DNA of 64,000 bases from Pseudomonadales bacterium (GCA_963665195.1 OY762070.1:4977809-5041808); one strand, 5' to 3'. Counted from the first letter of the stretch, positions 2,095-49,168 are shown. Notes: generated by a model from the sequence alone, not told the origin. Program-made: numbers and translations.

Positions 2095-2379
2095 GTGACG
2101 AAGGGCTCCACGATGTCGTTTAACGCCGACGATTTCCGACGAGGCTTGCAGGCGAAACTCCGATCAGCGAAGTCCAACGGGAGTCGTTGGCTCGTTGTCC
2201 AAGCCGGTGAGTTGCACGACGAACTCGGCGCGGATAACCGAGTGCCCGCGTGCTGCGGCGCTATGGTTGCCACCATGAGGCCCGGCGACACCGTCATGGA
2301 GTCGCCGCCCAGCGGAATGGGGCGGAGCTTGACCATCTTCTACTGGCTTGACCAAAGAGATGCGCAAGATGGACAGTAA
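2095..2379 (+). CDS. small hypothetical protein
   Basis: 94-aa ORF in a lower-GC patch. The segment GELHDELG..NRVPACCGAMV..MRPGDTV..PPSGMGRSLTIFYWL resembles a recurrent small bacterial protein family I cannot name. The competing minus ORF 1842-2336 looks like a GC artefact. Confidence 0.5.
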   Translation: MTKGSTMSFNADDFRRGLQAKLRSAKSNGSRWLVVQAGELHDELGADNRVPACCGAMVATMRPGDTVMESPPSGMGRSLTIFYWLDQRDAQDGQ

Positions 2380-2394: not shown

Positions 2395-3665
2395 TAACCT
2401 ATTTATTTGGAGCGTTTCTTTTTCGGCGAGATGACATAGTTCCAGTCGCCGTGGAACTTGTCCCTGGACAGCGACAGGGCGTCCATCTGCTCGTCGCTCA
2501 CCTTCACTCCCGTGGGATACTCGCCGTCGTCCAGCTCGGAGCGGATCTCCAGGCCCTTCTTCGTCGTCGTGGCCGCGATCAGGCTCACCACCGCCTCCCT
2601 GCTGACGAGCGGCCTGCCGCGCCAGTTCTCCGTGATCCGGCTGAACATGCGGTGCTCGATCTTGTTCCACTTGCTCGTGCCCGGCGGGAAGTGGCACACC
2701 GACACCTTCAGCCCCGTCTCGTCCGCAAAGCGCTGCAGCTCGACCTTCCACAGCCGGCTGCGGCTGCCGTTCGAGCCGCCCGCGTCCGCGGCCGCCAGCA
2801 GACGCCGCGCCGCCGGGTACCTCGCGCTCCCCATCCGCAGCCACCAGCGCCGCAGCGTCTCCGCCGCGAACGACGCCGTGTCGTGGTCCGCGCCCACGCT
2901 CACCCAGCCCGCGTCCGCCGCCACGTCGTACACCCCGTACGGGATCGCCTTGCCCAGCTCCGCGTCCTTGAAGTCGTGGACGCGCACCTTCTCCGGCTCC
3001 CCCGCCGGGCGCCATTCCCGCCCGCCGTTGCGGAAGTCCCCCACCAGCTCCTTCTTCTTCGTGTCCACCGACACCACCGGGGTGCCGCCGCGCATGAACG
3101 CCTTCGCCCGGCGGTTGATGTGGTTGAACTGCGCGTCCCGGTCCGGGTGCTGGCGACCCTCCAAGGTCTTGCGGTTCGACTGCAAGCTGTAGCCCATGTC
3201 GTGCAGCAGCCGGTTCACCGTCCGCTCGCTCACCGGGTGCCCTGCCGCGTCCAGCGCCTCCGCCAGCTTCGCCGCGCTCAGACTCGTCCAGCGCAGCGGC
3301 CCCGACGGATCGCCCCGCGTCGCCGGATCCACCAGCCGCTCCAGCGCCGGCACCAGCCCCGGGTCCCTGTCCTCCGCCCGCTTCCGGCCGCCGCCGGGCG
3401 AGCGCTGCCGATCCGACGCCTCGACGCCCGACTCCAGCTCCCGCAGGCCCTTCGCGATCGTGACCCGCGACATGCCCGTCGCCTCCCACACCCGCTCGAT
3501 GCCCCCGCGACCGACCGCGCGCGCCTCGGTCGCAGCCCAGAGCCTCTTGGCGCGCTCGTCGAGCACCGGTTCCAGATCCAGAAACTTCGCAAGTATCGTC
3601 CGCGTCGCAGCGTCGTCCATGACCCTGGCCTCTCGGCAAAAGTGCGCTCAACAATACAGGATGTT
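2395..3665 (-). mobile_element. ISAzo13-family insertion sequence (about 1.27 kb, ends approximate)
   Basis: Single transposase ORF. Imperfect terminal inverted repeats CCTATTTATTTGGAGCG (2398-2414) and the reverse complement of 3645-3660 (CCTGTATTGTTGAGCG), each followed inward by a TTTT..CGAGAG-like stretch. No clear target-site duplication seen. Confidence 0.75.
2403..3620 (-). CDS. ISAzo13-family DDE transposase
   Basis: 405 aa. N-terminal HTH region (ATGMSRVTIAKGLREL) and hallmark motifs VSVDTKKKELVGDF, IPYGVYD, LWKVELQ, CHFPPGTSKWNKIEHRMFS. Confidence 0.92.
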   Translation of the reverse strand: MDDAATRTILAKFLDLEPVLDERAKRLWAATEARAVGRGGIERVWEATGMSRVTIAKGLRELESGVEASDRQRSPGGGRKRAEDRDPGLVPALERLVDPATRGDPSGPLRWTSLSAAKLAEALDAAGHPVSERTVNRLLHDMGYSLQSNRKTLEGRQHPDRDAQFNHINRRAKAFMRGGTPVVSVDTKKKELVGDFRNGGREWRPAGEPEKVRVHDFKDAELGKAIPYGVYDVAADAGWVSVGADHDTASFAAETLRRWWLRMGSARYPAARRLLAAADAGGSNGSRSRLWKVELQRFADETGLKVSVCHFPPGTSKWNKIEHRMFSRITENWRGRPLVSREAVVSLIAATTTKKGLEIRSELDDGEYPTGVKVSDEQMDALSLSRDKFHGDWNYVISPKKKRSK

Positions 3666-6297: not shown

Positions 6298-6791
6298 AGC
6301 GCCTGCTGCTCGGCGTCGGCATCGGCGCACTCGGCGGCATCGCCGCGGGCTTCGCGCTCGGCATCGGCGTGTTTCCGTATCTGTTCCCGCCGCCGCCCGT
6401 CAACGAGGCGCTGCCGGAGCGCCTCGCCCCCGCCGTCGCCCAGGCCACCTTCATCCACGCCGACCCCGCCGATCCCATCCACTACGGCAGAGGCACCGCT
6501 ACGCTCTACGCGGACCTGTTGCGGCTGGAGGCGGATTTCGAGGTCGGCCCCGGGCCCAAGTTCCACGTCTATCTGGTACCCGATGCCGAGGTGACGCCGG
6601 AGACGGACGTGGAAGCGTCGATGTTCGTGGACCTCGGCAGGCTCAAGGCATTCGAAGGCAGTCAGAATTACCCGATTCCGCCCGGCGTCGCGCCGCTGGA
6701 TTACGGCAGCGTGGTGATCTGGTGCGAGCAGTTCGACGTGCTGATTTCGCCGGCGGCGGTCGAGCCCTCTGTCCCCAACGCAGGGACCTAG
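5744..6791 (+). repeat. direct repeat copy B of the AKR-3'/DM13 unit (partner 1-1051)
   Basis: See the partner feature. Offset is 5743 nt in the AKR part and 5740 nt at the DM13 stop. Confidence 0.9.
6294..6791 (+). CDS. DM13 domain-containing membrane-anchored protein (copy 2)
   Basis: ATGA overlap with the AKR stop. Collinear with 551-1051 but diverged and one codon shorter. Confidence 0.85.
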   Translation: MKRLLLGVGIGALGGIAAGFALGIGVFPYLFPPPPVNEALPERLAPAVAQATFIHADPADPIHYGRGTATLYADLLRLEADFEVGPGPKFHVYLVPDAEVTPETDVEASMFVDLGRLKAFEGSQNYPIPPGVAPLDYGSVVIWCEQFDVLISPAAVEPSVPNAGT

Positions 6792-29085: not shown

Positions 29086-29826
29086 CTATGGCGAACCTGA
29101 AGCACCTTCCCGGAGGCGGCTGCCTTGCGCCATCGCCTGCTGCAGGGAGCGCAGCGGGCGCGACCACGGGTTCAACTCCCGGATGCGTTGCGGCAGGCTG
29201 GCAGCGGCGCGTTCTGCGGTAGCTCGGTCCGGATAGATGCGCAGCAGCAATACGTGCCAGAGCGCGCCGTTGCTCTCGATCGGGATGCGCGCCATGCCGG
29301 GGATGCCGAGCTCTTCGGCAACCTCATCGAGCCGCGCTCTGGACTGCATCGCCAGGAGCTGAAGCGCGTAGAAGTCGCCGGGCAGTTCTTCGAGCGACAC
29401 CGGGCTGCTGGGCCGATAGGCCAAGCGCTGGTACAGCGGCGCGTTCGCGAGGTCTGCGGCTGGCGCGGGGGGCGGTGGGGCGCCCGCTGGCAGCACAGGC
29501 GGTGCAGGAGCGGATGGCGTGGCAGCACGCGAGGCGGCGGGAGGCGGCCTAGCGATGCGAGCTGGCGGCTGCGCCGGCCGACGCGGGGCTGGGGTGGCAC
29601 GCGGCGCGGGCTGCGCCGCACGCGGCGCTGGCGGCACCGGCACGCGCTCGGGAGGGTTGGTCGCCAGTTCCGCATCCTGAACGCAGTTCCATTCGCTTGC
29701 GGTGCTCGGATCGCAGAACCAGTCGTCGTTCGGCGCAGAACCGGTGCCCGCCAGATCGACGGGCGCCTGGGTGCGGCAGGCGGCAAGCAGGGCAATCAGA
29801 ACCGCCATGCCGAGCCGTCCATCCAT
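29086..29826 (-). CDS. SPOR-domain lipoprotein with proline-rich linker
   Basis: Lipobox LIALLAAC, an Ala/Pro-rich low-complexity region, and a C-terminal SPOR-like domain (FYALQLLAM......WHVLLLRIYPDRATAERAA). Confidence 0.78.
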   Translation of the reverse strand: MDGRLGMAVLIALLAACRTQAPVDLAGTGSAPNDDWFCDPSTASEWNCVQDAELATNPPERVPVPPAPRAAQPAPRATPAPRRPAQPPARIARPPPAASRAATPSAPAPPVLPAGAPPPPAPAADLANAPLYQRLAYRPSSPVSLEELPGDFYALQLLAMQSRARLDEVAEELGIPGMARIPIESNGALWHVLLLRIYPDRATAERAAASLPQRIRELNPWSRPLRSLQQAMAQGSRLREGASGSP

Positions 29827-30042
29827 CGCGCCGGCCACGCTCGAAACAAGCGCGTTCGAGCGCACTGCTCCCTGCGGCGTTCGTTCCATGCGTTGGACTT
29901 TGCCGCCTCGCCCAAGCGCTGTCAAAGCCTCGGCGTCCGCCGGGCGCCGCGCTGCGGCCCTTCGGGCGATGCGCCGCAATCGGCGTTGAATCGAGGCGGC
30001 GTATTGGCCATCATTGACCGCTGTTGCCCGTCGGGAACCGAC

Positions 30043-30645
30043 ATGCTGGCCACGCTCGAAAGCTACCACCGCATTCCGCGCATCCTGCGGCTCAATGTGG
30101 CAGGGCAGCCGGTGGAATGGGCCTCCTGGCAGGAGGCCGTCTGCCTGTACGCGCGCGGCGTGGTGAAGTGGACCCACGGCGAATCCGTGCTGCGGCTGCG
30201 GGGCGGCCACTCGCGGCTCGACGGCAGCCAGACCACGGTGGACATCCACAGCATCATCGCCTGCGGCGGGCGCCGCCACGAGCGGCCCAGACGCTCGCCG
30301 CCGCTCACCAACGCGGCGCTGTTCGGCCGGGACCGCTACCTCTGCCTGTACTGCGGCGGCATGTTCCCGCACGGCGCGCTGACGCGCGATCACGTCGTGC
30401 CCAAGTCGCGCGGCGGCGCGGACCATTGGGAGAACGTGGTGGCCGCCTGCCGACGCTGCAACCACCACAAGGGCAACCGCCTGCCGCACGAGTGCGGCAT
30501 GGAGCTGCTCGCGCTGCCGTACGTGCCGAACCTCGCCGAATACCTGGCGCTGACCAACTCGGGGCGCATCCTCGGCGATCAGATGGACTTCCTCGCCACG
30601 CAGTTCGGCAGCGCCGCCAAAGAGCGCGACAGCCTGCTGCACTGA
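30043..30645 (+). CDS. HNH endonuclease
   Basis: CLYCGG....DHVVPKSRGG...WENVVAACRRCNHHKGN is a canonical HNH/zinc motif. Confidence 0.85.
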   Translation: MLATLESYHRIPRILRLNVAGQPVEWASWQEAVCLYARGVVKWTHGESVLRLRGGHSRLDGSQTTVDIHSIIACGGRRHERPRRSPPLTNAALFGRDRYLCLYCGGMFPHGALTRDHVVPKSRGGADHWENVVAACRRCNHHKGNRLPHECGMELLALPYVPNLAEYLALTNSGRILGDQMDFLATQFGSAAKERDSLLH

Positions 30646-36701: not shown

Positions 36702-37110
36702 TGGTGGGCCCACCAGGGTTCGAACCTGGGACCAGTGGATTCGCTTGGCTCCGGCGTTTCCGCCGGCGCGGACTATCTCACCACCCTCGCCCTCTGCCGT
36801 TCTGCGCGGCTGTCGCGTTAGGGTGCGGGACGCTCTGGCCTGTCATCAAGGGCGCTCGAAGCGACAGCGTGCGGCGTGGTGTTCCGCGCCGCGCGTTGGG
36901 GTGCCGCCTCAGCCCTCAGGTAGTCTCTGCACCTTCCGGCGGTGTACCGCCGGCTTGGCTCAGGATTGCCGTGGCTGGCTTGCCGCCAACCGGGCGGTTC
37001 CCCTGAGTTCATCCCGTTCATCCGCCGCCTTTCGACGGCGGCGCACCGCGTTCGGGCGTTGCCGCCCGAGTCGATGAGTCCACCGCTCTAACCAACTGAG
37101 CTATAGGCCC
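36702..37110 (-). tRNA. tRNA with anticodon CAU (elongator type, probably tRNA-Ile2, otherwise Met) interrupted by a group I intron
   Basis: 5' exon 37110-37074 GGGCCTATAGCTCAGTTGGTTAGAGCGGTGGACTCAT. 3' exon 36741-36702 AATCCACTGGTCCCAGGTTCGAACCCTGGTGGGCCCACCA. Joined they give a 77-nt cloverleaf: 7-bp acceptor including one G-U pair, GCTC/GAGC D stem, GTGGA/TCCAC anticodon stem, loop CTCATAA, CCAGG/CCTGG T stem, and encoded CCA. Confidence 0.9.
36742..37073 (-). ncRNA. group I intron (IC3-like), 332 nt, no internal ORF
   Basis: Inserted right after the anticodon U of CAU. Core strings CTCAGGGGAACC, GGCAATCCTGAGCCAAGCC and CGGAAGGTGCAGAGACTA, plus the 3' partner GAGATAGTCC, match the conserved core remembered from cyanobacterial tRNA-Leu and Azoarcus tRNA-Ile introns. 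GTG guide sequence precedes a P2-like hairpin. The last intron base is G (omega-G). Confidence 0.85.
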
Positions 37111-39763: not shown

Positions 39764-40179
39764 ACCCGCACCGCGACGAGACGCACCTCGACTGGCAGCC
39801 CGGCTGGGACTGGCTGCTGCCCGTGGTGGGGCTGCACATCCTCTTCACCGTGCCGTGGGTGGCGGCGCTCGGCTGGTGGGCGCTCGTGCCCGGCGCGCTG
39901 TCGATGCTCTACCACCTCGGCATCTACCGGCGCGGCGAGACCTGGCGCTTCGCCTTCGTCGAGGACGCGGTGGTGCTCTTCGAGCCGGAGCGGCCGGAAC
40001 GCAAGGGCGAGGCGCGGCGTCCGGCAAAGCTGCGCGGCGGGCCTTGGATCACCGCCAACTGGGTGGTCGTGCGCACCAGCCGGCGCGTGCTGGCGATGCA
40101 TGGTTCGCGCTACGACGCGGTGCGCTTCGCGAGGCTCCGGCGGGCCCTCCTCGGCGGACTCGAGGCCGGGAACGGCTGA
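39760..40179 (+). CDS. YgfX/CptA-like inner-membrane protein (copy 1)
   Basis: ATGA overlap with sdhE. Two TM helices ([34 protein letters not shown]). Conserved position after sdhE. Confidence 0.72.
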
Positions 40180-40947
40180 AGCACGTCGAGCGGGTCCGCC
40201 GCCGGGTGGACGATGCTCGGCAGCGCCTGGGCGGCGCGGCGCGGGTAGTCGAGGGTGTAGTGCAGGCCGCGGCTCTCGCGCCGCATGAGCGCCGAACGGA
40301 CGATCAGCTCCGCCACATGCACCAGGTTGCGCAGTTCGATCAGGTCCGGGCCGACGCGGTGGCGGGCGTAGTAGTCGTGGATTTCGCGCTTGAGAAGGTC
40401 GATGCGATGCTGCGCGCGCTCCAGGCGCTTGTTGGTGCGCACGATGCCGACGTAGTCCCACATGAAGCGGCGCAGCTCCGTCCAGTTGTGGCTCAGCACC
40501 ACCTGCTCGTCGGAGTCCGAGACGCGGCTCTCGTCCCAATCCGGCAGTGCGACGGACGGTTGGCGCGCCGCCTCGCTGCGGCGCTGGGCGATGTCGGCGG
40601 CCGCGGCCTGGGCGAATACCAGGCACTCGAGCAGCGAATTGCTCGCCAGTCGGTTGGCGCCGTGCAGGCCGGTGCAGGCCGTCTCGCCAACCGCGTAGAG
40701 GCCGTCGATGTCCGTGCGGCTGGCGAGGTCCACGATCACGCCGCCGCAGGTGTAGTGCGCCGCCGGCACCACGGGGATGGGCTCGCGGCGGATGTCGATG
40801 TCGAGCTCCAGGCAGCGGGCCAGGATGGTGGGGAAGTGGGTTTCGAGGAAGCTGTCTTGCCGATGGCTGATGTCCAGATAGACGCAGCTCGCGCCGAGCC
40901 GCTTCATCTCGTGGTCGATGGCGCGCGCCACGATGTCGCGCGAGGCG
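40110..40947 (-). pseudogene. L-aspartate oxidase 3' fragment (duplicated, lacks the FAD-binding N-terminal 300 codons)
   Basis: Identical to the C-terminal part of nadB at 45547-46384. Homology ends at 40947. A GTG at 41174 creates a chimeric 354-codon ORF with 77 unrelated N-terminal residues. Confidence 0.85.
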
Positions 40948-41175
40948 GAGTAACTCTCGTGCGCCTTGCATGACTCCGGCACGGGCGGGCAAGCCTCCTG
41001 GCCGACCCTGCCACCCCGTTTGAGACCCGCGCCCGCCGAAGCGCGTATGGCCAGCGCTCTGTGCACGGCGTTCGTCAACCCCTCTATGCGCGGCTCCGAA
41101 TCCAAGCCAGCGCACCGCTTGCCGGAGTTCTTTCCGTCTGCCCCCGCAAGCATGGCGCACTGCGCGGCATTCACC

Positions 41176-45149: not shown

Positions 45150-46384
45150 GGCATCGTCGCGGAGATCGTCGCCTTCAATGCCGGGCAGGACGCGCCGTGA
45201 ACCCGCACCGCGACGAGACGCACCTCGACTGGCAGCCCGGCTGGGACTGGCTGCTGCCCGTGGTGGGGCTGCACATCCTCTTCACCGTGCCGTGGGTGGC
45301 GGCGCTCGGCTGGTGGGCGCTCGTGCCCGGCGCGCTGTCGATGCTCTACCACCTCGGCATCTACCGGCGCGGCGAGACCTGGCGCTTCGCCTTCGTCGAG
45401 GACGCGGTGGTGCTCTTCGAGCCGGAGCGGCCGGAACGCAAGGGCGAGGCGCGGCGTCCGGCAAAGCTGCGCGGCGGGCCTTGGATCACCGCCAACTGGG
45501 TGGTCGTGCGCACCAGCCGGCGCGTGCTGGCGATGCATGGTTCGCGCTACGACGCGGTGCGCTTCGCGAGGCTCCGGCGGGCCCTCCTCGGCGGACTCGA
45601 GGCCGGGAACGGCTGAAGCACGTCGAGCGGGTCCGCCGCCGGGTGGACGATGCTCGGCAGCGCCTGGGCGGCGCGGCGCGGGTAGTCGAGGGTGTAGTGC
45701 AGGCCGCGGCTCTCGCGCCGCATGAGCGCCGAACGGACGATCAGCTCCGCCACATGCACCAGGTTGCGCAGTTCGATCAGGTCCGGGCCGACGCGGTGGC
45801 GGGCGTAGTAGTCGTGGATTTCGCGCTTGAGAAGGTCGATGCGATGCTGCGCGCGCTCCAGGCGCTTGTTGGTGCGCACGATGCCGACGTAGTCCCACAT
45901 GAAGCGGCGCAGCTCCGTCCAGTTGTGGCTCAGCACCACCTGCTCGTCGGAGTCCGAGACGCGGCTCTCGTCCCAATCCGGCAGTGCGACGGACGGTTGG
46001 CGCGCCGCCTCGCTGCGGCGCTGGGCGATGTCGGCGGCCGCGGCCTGGGCGAATACCAGGCACTCGAGCAGCGAATTGCTCGCCAGTCGGTTGGCGCCGT
46101 GCAGGCCGGTGCAGGCCGTCTCGCCAACCGCGTAGAGGCCGTCGATGTCCGTGCGGCTGGCGAGGTCCACGATCACGCCGCCGCAGGTGTAGTGCGCCGC
46201 CGGCACCACGGGGATGGGCTCGCGGCGGATGTCGATGTCGAGCTCCAGGCAGCGGGCCAGGATGGTGGGGAAGTGGGTTTCGAGGAAGCTGTCTTGCCGA
46301 TGGCTGATGTCCAGATAGACGCAGCTCGCGCCGAGCCGCTTCATCTCGTGGTCGATGGCGCGCGCCACGATGTCGCGCGAGGCG
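45150..46384. repeat. 1,235-bp direct repeat, right copy
   Basis: See 39713-40947. Confidence 0.93.
45197..45616 (+). CDS. YgfX/CptA-like inner-membrane protein (copy 2, no intact sdhE upstream)
   Basis: Same protein as 39760-40179, but the start codon is GTG (SNP), and only the last 47 nt of sdhE precede it. Confidence 0.65.
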
Positions 46385-47292
46385 AGCTCGGCCCTCGGAT
46401 CGAAGCGCTCCATGAAGCGCGTGCCGTCCGGCAGCAAGAGCTTGCCACCTTCGCCGCGCACGGCTTCCGAGATGAGAAAGGAGCGCGCTTCGGGGTGGTA
46501 CAGGCAGGTGGGATGGAACTGGTTGAACTCCATGTTCGCCACTCGGCAGCCGGCCCGCCAAGCCATGGCGATGCCATCGCCCGTCGCGCCGTCGGGATTG
46601 CTTGTGTAGAGGTAGGCCTTGCTCGCGCCGCCGGTGGCAAGCACCACGAAGGGCGCCTCGAACACTTCCACCGCATCTGCGGCGCTGTGGTAGGCGTAGG
46701 CGCCGAGCACGCGGTTCTGCCGATGTTCGGGTGCCGGCAGGGGAATGGCGTTGCCGTCCGACGTGCGTGGTCGCTGACGCTTGGAACGCTCGCCCCGGGC
46801 GAACTTCTGGGTGGTGGCAATGTCGATGGCCACCCGGCCGCTCTGGATGTCGATATTCGGATGTGCCCGCGCCCGTTCGATCAGCGTCCTGCCGATCGCC
46901 GCGCCGGTCGCGTCCGCTACATGCAGCACGCGCCGATGGCTGTGCCCGCCCTCCCGGGTGAGATGCGGCTCGCCGTCCTCGCGGTCGAAGCTAAGCCCCA
47001 TGTCCACCACGTGCTGGATGGCCTGCGGCCCGCGCGACACGGCGAACCGCACGGCCTCTGCGTCGCATAGACCAGCGCCGGCGGCGATCGTGTCCTCGAT
47101 GTGCGACTCGAAGCTGTCGCTGGCCGCAGTAACCGCCGCAACGCCGCCTTGGGCGCGGTTCGTCGCCCCGCCATGCACGGCGTCCTTCGACAGCACGGTG
47201 ACCTGGGCGTCGTCCGCCAGGCGCAGCGCAGTGGCAAGCCCGGCCGCCCCGCTGCCGATCACCAGCACATCCGTTCGAGTCCGATTCGCCAC
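45547..47292 (-). CDS. nadB: L-aspartate oxidase
   Basis: [15 protein letters not shown] motif, [23 protein letters not shown], and C-terminal [14 protein letters not shown] start. About 25 extra residues ([27 protein letters not shown]) relative to the typical NadB as I recall it. The 3' end overlaps ygfX copy 2 by 70 nt. Confidence 0.92.
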
Positions 47293-47461
47293 GCGAGGAA
47301 CCGTTGCGTTTTCGTTGCAGCGAGTATAGCGCCGGGGTCCGGCGCTAGTGTGCCGTCGCGGAATCGCCTGACATATGCCGCGCAGTCGAGCGTCTCCCAC
47401 CAAGCGTCGTTTGGTGGTCAAATGAGGTCCGACGAGGCGCTCCGCCGTGGACGGATGCGCG

Positions 47462-49168
47462 TTACGGTGGCGGTTCGCTCGGGCGGGACCAATCCAGGCG
47501 AATGTCCCAGTCGTAGACGAACTCTTCCGGCAGCGTTGGCGCGGTCGCGTTGTCGATATGGGTGTAGACGTTGGCGGGCGGCTCCGGCATCGCGTCGCGA
47601 CCGTAGATGTAGTCCTGGTCGAGCACGATGGCGCGGTAGGCCTTGTTAAGTGCCAGCGCTCGCGTCACCGACGGCACGACCAGCGCATAGACGTCCGCCG
47701 CAGCTTCCACCCGTTCCCGGTCGATGCTGCCGTCCGCATTGAACCAGCGCGCGAACATCTCCGGGTTGCTGCGGAACTCGCCGCCGCCGCCGACGCGCTC
47801 GAGGTAGACGGCGATCTCGCCACGGGTCTCGCCGAAGCTTGGCGCGTCGGGCATGCCCTTGAGGTCGATGTAGCCCCAACCCGGGGCGCCGTCGACCTTG
47901 CGCGGGAAGCCGAAGGTCTTGTCGACGGTGACGCCGACCGAGGTGTGGCAACCCATGCAGAACAGGGTCTCCTCGTACGTGGCGGCGCGCAGTTCGCCGC
48001 TGCGGTCCTCGATGAAGCCCTGCAGCGACCAGCCGAACTTGTTGTCGAGGCCGCGGTCGCCGAGGTGGGCGTACTGGGGCATGTTGCCGAGTTCCTTCTC
48101 GAACGCCTCGAGCTGGTACTGGCGCGCGTAGACCTGCTTGCTGTAGGCGACCCACTTGCGCATGTAGCGGACCTCCTTCATGCGCCGCGACGATCCGATC
48201 TCGCCGTCTTCGGCGATCCCGAGGTAGCGCACCGTGTGCAGAAACTCGGTGCCCGTCGGGTAGAGGTGGGTATCGCGGAACTCGTCGACGGCGGCGCCCA
48301 CGTAACCGGTCGGCAGGGCGACGCGTCGGGCGACGCCGAGCAGACCGTCGCCATCGAGGTCGACACCGACGCGTCGCTCGTCCACGGGCGGCATGGTGAT
48401 CGAGTCGAGTCCCTTGATGCCGGCCTCGAGGATCGCGAGGTTCGCGAGGTACACGTCCCGGGAGCGACTGCCGCTGGCGTCTGTCCGGAACTGTACCGGC
48501 AGGCGGATCATGACATCGTCGGTGGAGCCGTTGGTCGGCCAGAACGTGCTAGGGAACGGCTTGTAGTTGAACGCCACCCAATCGCTGCCGTCGAGGGCGA
48601 AGCCTTGATCGTCGAACGCCGCCGCGCCGCGCTGCAGACCGTCGAGGTCGGGAATCCAGCCCGAGAAACCGGCTTGGCGCAGACGCGGCGCAAGGGCAGA
48701 GTAGTTGTCGTCGTCCACCCATGCGCGGATCTCGTCGTCGGATACGCGCCCGACTTCTGCGGACCGGTCCTCGAACAGGTTTCGCCAGTGGTTGGTCATG
48801 CCGACGTCGCTGAAGCTATAGGCGACCTGCAGGTCGTCATCGTTCATGACGTTCTCCCGGCTCGGGATCTCGCGCTGGTGGCACACGTAGCAGGGGTTGA
48901 AGCGTCCTTCGGTGCGCGTGTAGCACTGCGGCGGAATGATCGCCTCCGGGTTGTAGGCAGTCCGTATGGGGTGGACGTCCGGCAGCGGACGCGGCACCAC
49001 GGCGTCGCTGTCGCCGAGATACTCGAGGACCTGTTCGTGGTAGGGGGCCGGAGGCACCTCCGCGGCGTCTGCCAGCACGGCGGCGGTCGGCGTGCGTTCG
49101 GACTGCGGCAGACAGCCGCAGAGGACCAACGACGCCAGCGCGAGGTACGCGAGCCCCCAGGCCCGCAT
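47462..49168 (-). CDS. lipoprotein with two CXXCH haem-binding motifs
   Basis: Lipobox LVLCGC. CYVCH and CMGCH motifs about 330 residues apart. 568 aa. No named family recognised. Confidence 0.7.

Follow-up and report, generated by a model that had tools for sequence, protein, structure and literature searches.

A probable tRNA-Ile2(CAU) gene split by a long, ORF-less group I intron, probably of the IC3 type, on a gammaproteobacterial chromosome

Introduction

Group I introns have been known in tRNA-Ile(CAU) genes since work on Azoarcus in the early 1990s. A search of 80,413 bacterial genomes has since mapped 5,292 intron-split tRNA genes, and the type designated Ile2.5Ug is one of four classical IC3 types (Williams 2020, bioRxiv 10.1101/2020.01.27.920355). 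The same study noted that the Rfam seed does not contain bacterial introns, and that ARAGORN reports ghost exons and puts some introns in the wrong place. For the Anabaena pre-tRNA, the anticodon stem is reported to align the exons (Zaug et al. 1993, as cited in PMC3984707).

A preliminary description of a 64-kb stretch of DNA (the window, meaning the whole stretch analysed) had pointed to a tRNA(CAU) gene made up of exons of 37 and 40 nt around a 332-nt ORF-less insert that starts directly after the U of CAU and ends in G. All of these elements are present (Table 1), with the gene on the minus strand, a point on which that description was silent. The core strings that it quoted, GGCAATCCTGAGCCAAGCC, CGGAAGGTGCAGAGACTA and GAGATAGTCC, were all located, as was the hairpin TCGGGCG-GCAA-CGCCCGA. 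We conclude, with a probability of about 0.9, that this is a chromosomal gammaproteobacterial tRNA-Ile2(CAU) gene (ileX type) in which U36 is followed by an ORF-less group I intron, 332 nt long and of the IC3 kind, the arrangement known as Ile2.5Ug. The class is long known and widespread, and the window copy, an unusually long addition to it, confirms rather than discovers it.

The Azoarcus-like copies in our sample are loci L003, L089, L106 and L116. The window intron resembles them in its host, a tRNA with near-identical exons, in its insertion after U36 and in the absence of an ORF. A CAU/GUG P1 with a U.G wobble, an omega-G, and GAAA-capped P2 and P9 are also shared, and the P6-J6/7-P7 strings, GAGCCAAG...GAAGGUGYAGAGACUA...AUAGUCC, are near-identical. 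However, the Azoarcus-like introns are only 204-223 nt long. The window intron exceeds the 204-nt copies by ~127 nt, in good agreement with the difference of about 130 nt originally claimed. In Azoarcus-like copies, the P7 strand GACUA runs straight into the 3' strand of P3 (P3'; GACGGCACC), whereas in the window an 82-nt hairpin lies between the two. P8 is of the CCUAAG/UAUGG kind in the Azoarcus-like introns, in contrast to CCCUAAC/GAGGG in the window, and they have a 3-bp P10 (AAU with AUU or GUU before GUG), whereas none is evident in the window. The 3' ends also differ (...CACAAACC(A/G)G versus ...AAGCG), and P1 is extended in the window. Outside the core and the exons, no BLAST alignment was found between the window and the Azoarcus-like copies.

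The window intron probably belongs to the same ribozyme subgroup as the cyanobacterial tRNA-Leu(UAA) intron (Anabaena) and shares core strings with it. The Anabaena P8 motif, which we take to be of the CCCUAAC/GAGGG kind, would also be like that of the window. However, the tRNA-Leu(UAA) introns have a different host tRNA and are inserted between U34 and A35, and the sampled copies have GACGG... immediately after the P7 strand, with no hairpin at that point. The direct passage from P7 GACUA to P3' (GACGG...) was found in most of the sampled tRNA-Leu, tRNA-Arg and tRNA-Ser introns.

The split gene

Exon 1 includes the acceptor 5' strand, the D arm, the anticodon stem 5' strand and loop nucleotides CUCAU, and is invariant or nearly so across 20 relatives. 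Exon 2 supplies the anticodon-loop AA, the anticodon stem 3' strand, the variable loop, the T arm, the acceptor 3' strand, the discriminator A and an encoded CCA. When the exons are joined, ARAGORN finds a 77-nt cloverleaf with anticodon CAU, the loop CUCAUAA and stems of 7, 4, 5 and 5 bp that consist of standard pairs throughout, and the stems covary in the relatives. The predicted ligated junction brings GGACUCAU together with AAUCCAC. Applied to the unspliced 64-kb window in default mode, ARAGORN reports no tRNA.

The intron starts CGAC... and ends ...AAGCG, with C38 of the precursor as its first nucleotide and the omega-G, precursor nucleotide 369, as its last. None of its reading frames is of endonuclease-coding length. 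The 64-kb window contains no ghost exon, no second intron copy and no repeat-element match to the inserted segments.

Table 1. Coordinates in the window of the exons, the intron and its predicted helices
Feature	Coordinates	Strand	Details
tRNA-Ile2(CAU) exon 1 (probable)	37074..37110	(-)	37 nt; GGGCCUAUAGCUCAGUUGGUUAGAGCGGUGGACUCAU; ends ...GACUCAU at U36
Group I intron (probably IC3-type)	36742..37073	(-)	332 nt; ORF-less; CGACUCGGGCGGCAACGCCCGA...GGAGCCAAGCG
tRNA-Ile2(CAU) exon 2 (probable)	36702..36741	(-)	40 nt; AAUCCACUGGUCCCAGGUUCGAACCCUGGUGGGCCCACCA; AAUCCAC...CCA
P1	37044..37076	(-)	Exon CAU and intron CG(A)C paired with CGCGGUG
P2	37022..37041	(-)	8-bp hairpin, GAAA tetraloop; changes on both sides at 8/8 pairs
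P3 5' strand, CGGGAUG	37010..37016	(-)	Pairs with 36832-36826
P3 3' strand, CGUCCCG	36826..36832	(-)	Forms pseudoknot with P7
P4-P5-P6 domain	36931..37006	(-)	P4 UCAGGG/UCCUGA; expanded P5/P5a, GGCAA loop; P6/P6a, UACA loop
P7 5' strand, GACUA	36921..36925	(-)	Within conserved GCAGAGACUA; pairs with UAGUC, 36775-36771
P7 3' strand, UAGUC	36771..36775	(-)	Within GAGAUAGUCC
P7.1 (name given here)	36839..36920	(-)	Hairpin between P7 and P3'; CCUG/CAGG, asymmetric loop, GGGC/GCCC, tip
P8	36782..36825	(-)	CACCC-UAA-CGCG...CGCG-A-GGGUG; tip expanded; aligned by model R1
P9.0 and P9	36742..36769	(-)	P9.0 GC/GC encloses P9 hairpin (GAAA loop), followed by omega-G 36742

Structure of the intron

Standard pairs suffice to draw a complete P1-P9 model with its P3/P7 pseudoknot and P9.0. 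The fold expected around the proposed splice sites can therefore be built, and compensatory changes are found across 15-19 relatives. The guide GGUG is at 37047-37044, and both the pairing of GUG with CAU and the G-U pair at the splice site that had been proposed are present, the latter as the U37.G65 wobble (precursor numbering). In all 20 sequences, the P1 core pairs are C35-G67, A36-U66, U37.G65 and C38-G64. P1 encloses a lineage-specific 7-bp extension with a GCAA loop (37069-37052), which is recovered by the free-energy fold.

Of the counted pairs of P3, 3/5 covary, and the helix is 100 % paired in 20 sequences. The same pairing (CGGGA with UCCCG) is found in the Rfam alignment of the relative L024. 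CCUG, located right after P7, was considered as the P3 partner and rejected, as sequences of the beta family cannot form this pairing and it is UCCCG/CCCGG that covaries with the 5' strand. The P4-P5-P6 domain was assigned from the local match to RF00028 given below, and P5a and P6a covary. The P7 pairs are invariant in 20 sequences. P7.1 is 82 nt long in total, ~58 nt of which is a tip expansion specific to the window; its asymmetric loop (A opposite UUGAUGA) is conserved and its inner pairs covary in the 16-sequence count described below. P8 and P8a covary in the same count, and two P8 pairs have compensatory changes in the 20-sequence count. In P9.0 (2/2) and P9 (6/6), all pairs have changes on both sides in 20 sequences, and omega-G369 directly follows the P9.0 pairs G342-C368 and C343-G367. 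No P10 pairing is evident in the window subfamily.

L2 and L9 are both GAAA, and P8 carries CCCUAAC/GAGGG, a string which we take to be identical to the published IC3 tetraloop receptor. An IC3 receptor at the L2-P8 contact is described in PMC11571812. The preliminary description had also listed extra GC-rich helices near the 5' end and in the P8/P9 region. The 5' helix and the one in P8 were found, but the location in P9 was not correct, as the 3' extras are between P7 and P3' and in P8.

Support for the fold

Pairing was counted in 16 gammaproteobacterial sequences (the window and 15 relatives; count A) and in 20 sequences that include an added beta-proteobacterial group (count B). In count A, 93.3 % of cells are paired compared with 84.1 % in shuffles, and 45 pairs are changed on both sides; in count B, the values are 96.6 % and 85.2 %. 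The observed pairing was reached by none of 500 shuffles, and slid controls were 35-47 % paired (36-47 % in count A). Pairs changed on both sides number 31-45 across the two counts. Compensatory changes are found in P2, P3, P8, P9.0, P9 and the tRNA stems in count B, and count A adds covariation in P6a and in the inner stem of P7.1. P1, P4, P6, P7 and the outer P7.1 stem rest on conservation, not covariation: P4 has one pair with a double change, in a single sequence, and the others never vary. The free-energy fold recovers the P1 extension, P2, P3, P4, P5, P6a, P7.1, P8 and P9 (-169.7 kcal/mol, z = -3.9).

A covariance model (R1) that extends from P7 to the 3' exon (140 positions) was built from 14 relatives, with the window excluded. 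It has a single match in the 64 kb, 36933-36738(-), which is full length through the omega-G and AAUC (103.7 bits, E 2.7e-26). Rfam at the gathering cutoff gives no match in the window. The curated gathering cutoff of RF00028 (Intron_gpI) is 50 bits, and a 1-kb search in E-value mode gave only a local match of 22.3 bits (E 0.0032) at 37006-36921(-), which spans P4-P5-P6 and the P7 5' strand. However, 15 of 16 relatives pass this cutoff at full length, with 51-78 bits. The Rfam alignment of L024 treats P7.1 as a pure insert between P7 and P3' and, because of this, the 82-nt P7.1 together with the expanded P8 plausibly explains the shortfall in the window. The Rfam check that had been suggested thus fails at the curated cutoff for the window copy but succeeds for its relatives, and the family model is strong. 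Together, the fold, the relatives and this family-specific model support the original assignment to the IC3 type of group I introns seen in Azoarcus and cyanobacteria.

Splice sites, identity of the tRNA and state of the intron

CG stands at both ends of the insert, leaving a boundary ambiguity of 2 nt. Because of this, ARAGORN, when introns are allowed, can retain the 77 + 332 nt layout and slide the insert 2 nt upstream, which gives the anticodon CCG. The exon would then end ...CUC, the intron, which would likewise end in G, would end ...AAG, and the gene would encode tRNA-Arg(CCG). This placement can be set aside with near certainty. It puts C in place of U at -1, which breaks the invariant U.G wobble of P1, and disregards the covarying P9.0 pairs that set G369 as the omega-G. 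In the relatives, the same shift leads to the incoherent anticodons CUG, CCG, CGA and UUG on near-identical tRNA bodies, whereas the boundary CUCAU/...G/AA fits every split tRNA(CAU) relative examined. The CAU/omega-G369 boundary is the supported one, because P9.0 defines G369 as the omega-G and U37.G65 provides the wobble that identifies the 5' site. With this boundary, the insertion is placed as in Ile2.5Ug, CUCAU/cgac...agcg/AA, with U at -1, G at omega and the intron after the fifth anticodon-loop nucleotide. A tRNA with anticodon CAU could nevertheless be an elongator tRNA-Met, in which case splicing would matter for AUG and not for AUA. ARAGORN calls any CAU tRNA Met, certain phage homologues of exon 1 are annotated as tRNA-Met, and the window copy has lost the G27.U43 wobble that characterizes the family. 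Overall identity to E. coli sequences does not separate Ile2 from Met, that to metT (60/81) being no lower than that to ileX (58/77), with both reference sequences entered by hand. However, the tRNA has the Ile2 marks G3-C70, C4-G69 and C5-G68. In the analysis of Silva et al. (2006, PMC1635315), tRNA-Ile(CAT) typically has C4-G69 and C5-G68, which E. coli TilS requires, and G3-C70 speaks against both Met and fMet. The resemblance to E. coli tRNA-Ile2 that had been noted from C4-G69 and C5-G68 is therefore supported, and G3-C70 adds to it. The initiator is excluded because the tRNA has G1-C72 and C11-G24, the latter in place of the initiator mark A11-U24. Identity to the exons of the Azoarcus-like split genes, the classical Ile2 case (Williams 2020), is 92-95 %, and the best E. 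coli BLAST matches are PGAP-annotated tRNA-Ile genes with CTCATAA. We therefore consider an elongator tRNA-Met very improbable.

It is also conceivable that the intron is a decayed relic that no longer splices, that the gene is a tRNA pseudogene and that AUA is decoded by an intron-less ileX elsewhere in the genome. The missed Rfam gathering cutoff, the size of the intron, which through several insertions is the second longest among the 111 subfamily members listed, and the departure from family-invariant columns at G27-C43 and three further positions would be in keeping with decay. However, of the 166 columns that do not vary among 15 relatives, the window agrees with 162, which is in the same range as other members. 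All core helices are intact with standard pairs, the tRNA stems are all perfect, and the insertions, which lie at hairpin tips, form stable helices of their own. The full-length match to the family-specific model (103.7 bits) also argues against a relic. As judged from its sequence, the window copy shows no sign of decay, and we see only a slim chance that it is a pseudogene. The tRNA-Ile2(CAU) gene with an intact intron is the reading retained here.

The G27-C43 pair of the window tRNA (C43 is window position 36735, precursor position 376) corresponds to G27.U43 in 18 of 20 relatives. AUA accounts for 13 of the ~11,400 codons in the window genes.

Related introns

A species-level scan (one genome per species) with the pattern GAGCCAAG-N(8-38)-GAAGGTGYAGAGACTA returned at least 120 matches, distributed among Acidobacteriota, Alpha-, Beta- and Gammaproteobacteria, Bacteroidota, Cyanobacteria, CPR lineages and others. 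Approximately 100 of the matches listed are in split tRNA genes, and 23 of the matches listed are tRNA(CAU) genes split identically (...CUCAU/...G/AAUCC...), most of which ARAGORN calls Gln, Arg or Ser. A scan of metagenomes (at least 120 matches listed) enlarged the subfamily to at least 111 complete members. The earlier view that bacterial tRNA introns are rare is not compatible with at least 120 matches in each scan, spread over many phyla, or with the 5,292 split genes recorded by Williams (2020).

We note that ARAGORN, with introns allowed, mislabels near-identical tRNA-Ile2 bodies (in the window and loci L004-L120) as Gln(CUG), Arg(CCG), Ser(CGA) and Gln(UUG). Three archaeal-binned contigs, from two Pacearchaeota MAGs (L011 and L040) and a Methanosarcinaceae MAG (L062), include an IC3 core, two of them in a split tRNA-Asn; a similar case was ascribed to mis-binning by Williams (2020, bioRxiv 10.1101/2020.01.27.920355).

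The 409-nt unit of the window aligns end to end with L033 (74 % identity, E ~1e-73), and the precursor also aligns to ~15 other gammaproteobacterial copies and, overall, to ~20 split tRNA(CAU) genes. The homology of the unit is far beyond chance. L033 is the nearest relative among the matches listed, and it is only 74 % identical to the window copy and has different gene neighbours. The whole architecture of the window intron is common to a gamma subfamily that includes Pseudomonadales MAGs (L033, L095 and L099), Lysobacter, Luteimonas, Rhodanobacteraceae, Steroidobacteraceae and Woeseiaceae. The shared features are P7.1 with the 3' loop strand CUUrAUnACAGG, P3 CGGGA/UCCCG, P9.0 and the invariant columns referred to above. 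The window copy differs from other members in its 26-nt P1 loop with a GCAA-capped helix, in G27-C43 and in its P7.1 tip, which is 73 nt compared with 21-22 nt in most gamma subfamily members. Subfamily introns are 225-367 nt long (median 245), and at 332 nt the window intron is the second longest among the matches listed. The excess length consists of tip expansions, namely the 7-bp GCAA-capped P1 extension, P5a, ~58 nt of the P7.1 tip, and the P8 tip.

A hairpin of the P7.1 type is found in both the gamma and the beta subfamily but in none of the Azoarcus-like copies. The beta group (L030, L038 and L042) and a Runella MAG (L098, Bacteroidota) carry an equivalent hairpin with the stem GGGUG/CACCC (L030 and L042), GGACG/UGUCC (L038) or AGAAG/CUUCU (L098). 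Short hairpins are also found at the same P7-P3' location in CPR introns in tRNA-Thr, tRNA-Asn and tRNA-Phe. The P7-P3' position evidently tolerates insertion, because these other lineages also have short hairpins there. No description of the P7.1 hairpin of the window subfamily was found in the literature compared. On sequence grounds, the window intron is a member of a gamma/beta-proteobacterial subfamily with an extra hairpin between P7 and P3'.

Among 111 members (the L004-L241 subset), a P1 loop of >12 nt and a P7.1 tip of >30 nt co-occur at a rate above expectation (7/11 versus 11/96, Fisher p = 3e-4, a value that is confounded by relatedness). This co-occurrence is treated here as shared ancestry, not as a demonstrated contact. 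Docking of the P1-extension loop onto the P7.1 extension, in the manner of a GNRA loop, was considered and rejected, as the best cases belong to one clade and the loops are inconsistently GNRA.

In two of the loci, L003 (~6440-6476(-), host Polynucleobacter) and L038 (~2245-2281(-), a Burkholderiales MAG), an extra tRNA-Ile2 5' half (GGGCC...GACUCAUAA) followed by unrelated sequence lies ~230 nt upstream of the split gene. The intron types of these two loci differ. The half-copies resemble a 'ghost exon' and are possibly scars of allele replacement.

Genomic context

The window, with a G+C content of 68.5 %, is an ordinary stretch of chromosome. The genes flanking the split gene encode a dioxygenase of the PhyH family and an aldehyde dehydrogenase; an ABC transporter operon lies upstream, and LptD, SurA and anthranilate synthase component I are encoded farther off. 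The database relatives of SurA (P0001), at 86 % and ~70 %, include MAGs labelled 'Gammaproteobacteria bacterium'. In the relatives of the window copy, the genes for the PhyH dioxygenase, aldehyde dehydrogenase and ABC transporter do not adjoin the split gene. For the split gene, a simple consensus scan detected no promoter- or terminator-like site.

In phage and plasmid collections, no match to the intron was found, and only exon 1 has matches, to intron-less tRNA genes. The G+C content of the intron follows that of the host (r = 0.86, 20 loci), and this fits long residence over recent arrival.

Three further features of the window were recorded. An intact-looking DDE transposase of the ISAzo13 family is encoded at 2403-3647(-) (PF07592, E 2e-143). 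The 506-aa protein encoded at 29125-30642(+), ~6.5 kb from the split gene, has a C-terminal HNH endonuclease domain (PF14279/PF01844); it is outside the intron and no link to the split gene was found. The ORF at 40110-41174(-) matches only the C-terminal third of FAD_binding_2 together with Succ_DH_flav_C, whereas 45547-47664(-) matches the full profile, and the former may be a truncated or frameshifted paralogue of the latter.

Proposed splicing pathway and implications

Building on the observed fold, homology, conservation and splice-site placement, we infer that the window copy is catalytic, that its spliced product is modified by TilS and that the gene functions in vivo. The precursor would fold into P1-P9, with the guide GGUG paired to exon CAU and the intron C, so that the U.G wobble would mark the 5' splice site. 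P7 would bind an exogenous guanosine, which would attack this site. P9.0 would then put omega-G369 into the same pocket, and the 5' exon would attack the 3' splice site. With no P10 evident, the 5-bp anticodon stem of the tRNA presumably clamps the exons, as it reportedly does for the Anabaena pre-tRNA. The spliced tRNA would be a substrate for TilS and, once modified, would decode AUA.

A more far-reaching proposal can be put forward, in which the gamma/beta Ile2 introns constitute a distinct IC3 subclass with P7.1 as a required peripheral element (compare P7.1/P7.2 of IA introns), the P1 and P7.1 tips have, in the lineage of the window copy, co-expanded into a new contact and, the split gene being the sole ileX, a guanosine-dependent ribozyme gates AUA decoding. 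As a whole, we consider this proposal speculative and unlikely to hold.

For biology in general, existing knowledge is unchanged, as thousands of split tRNA genes have already been mapped. For annotation, the gene is missed by ARAGORN in default mode and by Rfam in gathering mode, and is given the wrong anticodon by ARAGORN when introns are allowed. Because standard tools miss or misread the split gene, the genome would seem to be without a tRNA-Ile2. For RNA structure, the subfamily is a natural collection of more than 100 Azoarcus-like ribozyme variants that have an extra domain and tolerate insertions at the hairpin tips, and these may be of use in ribozyme engineering or in studies of folding.
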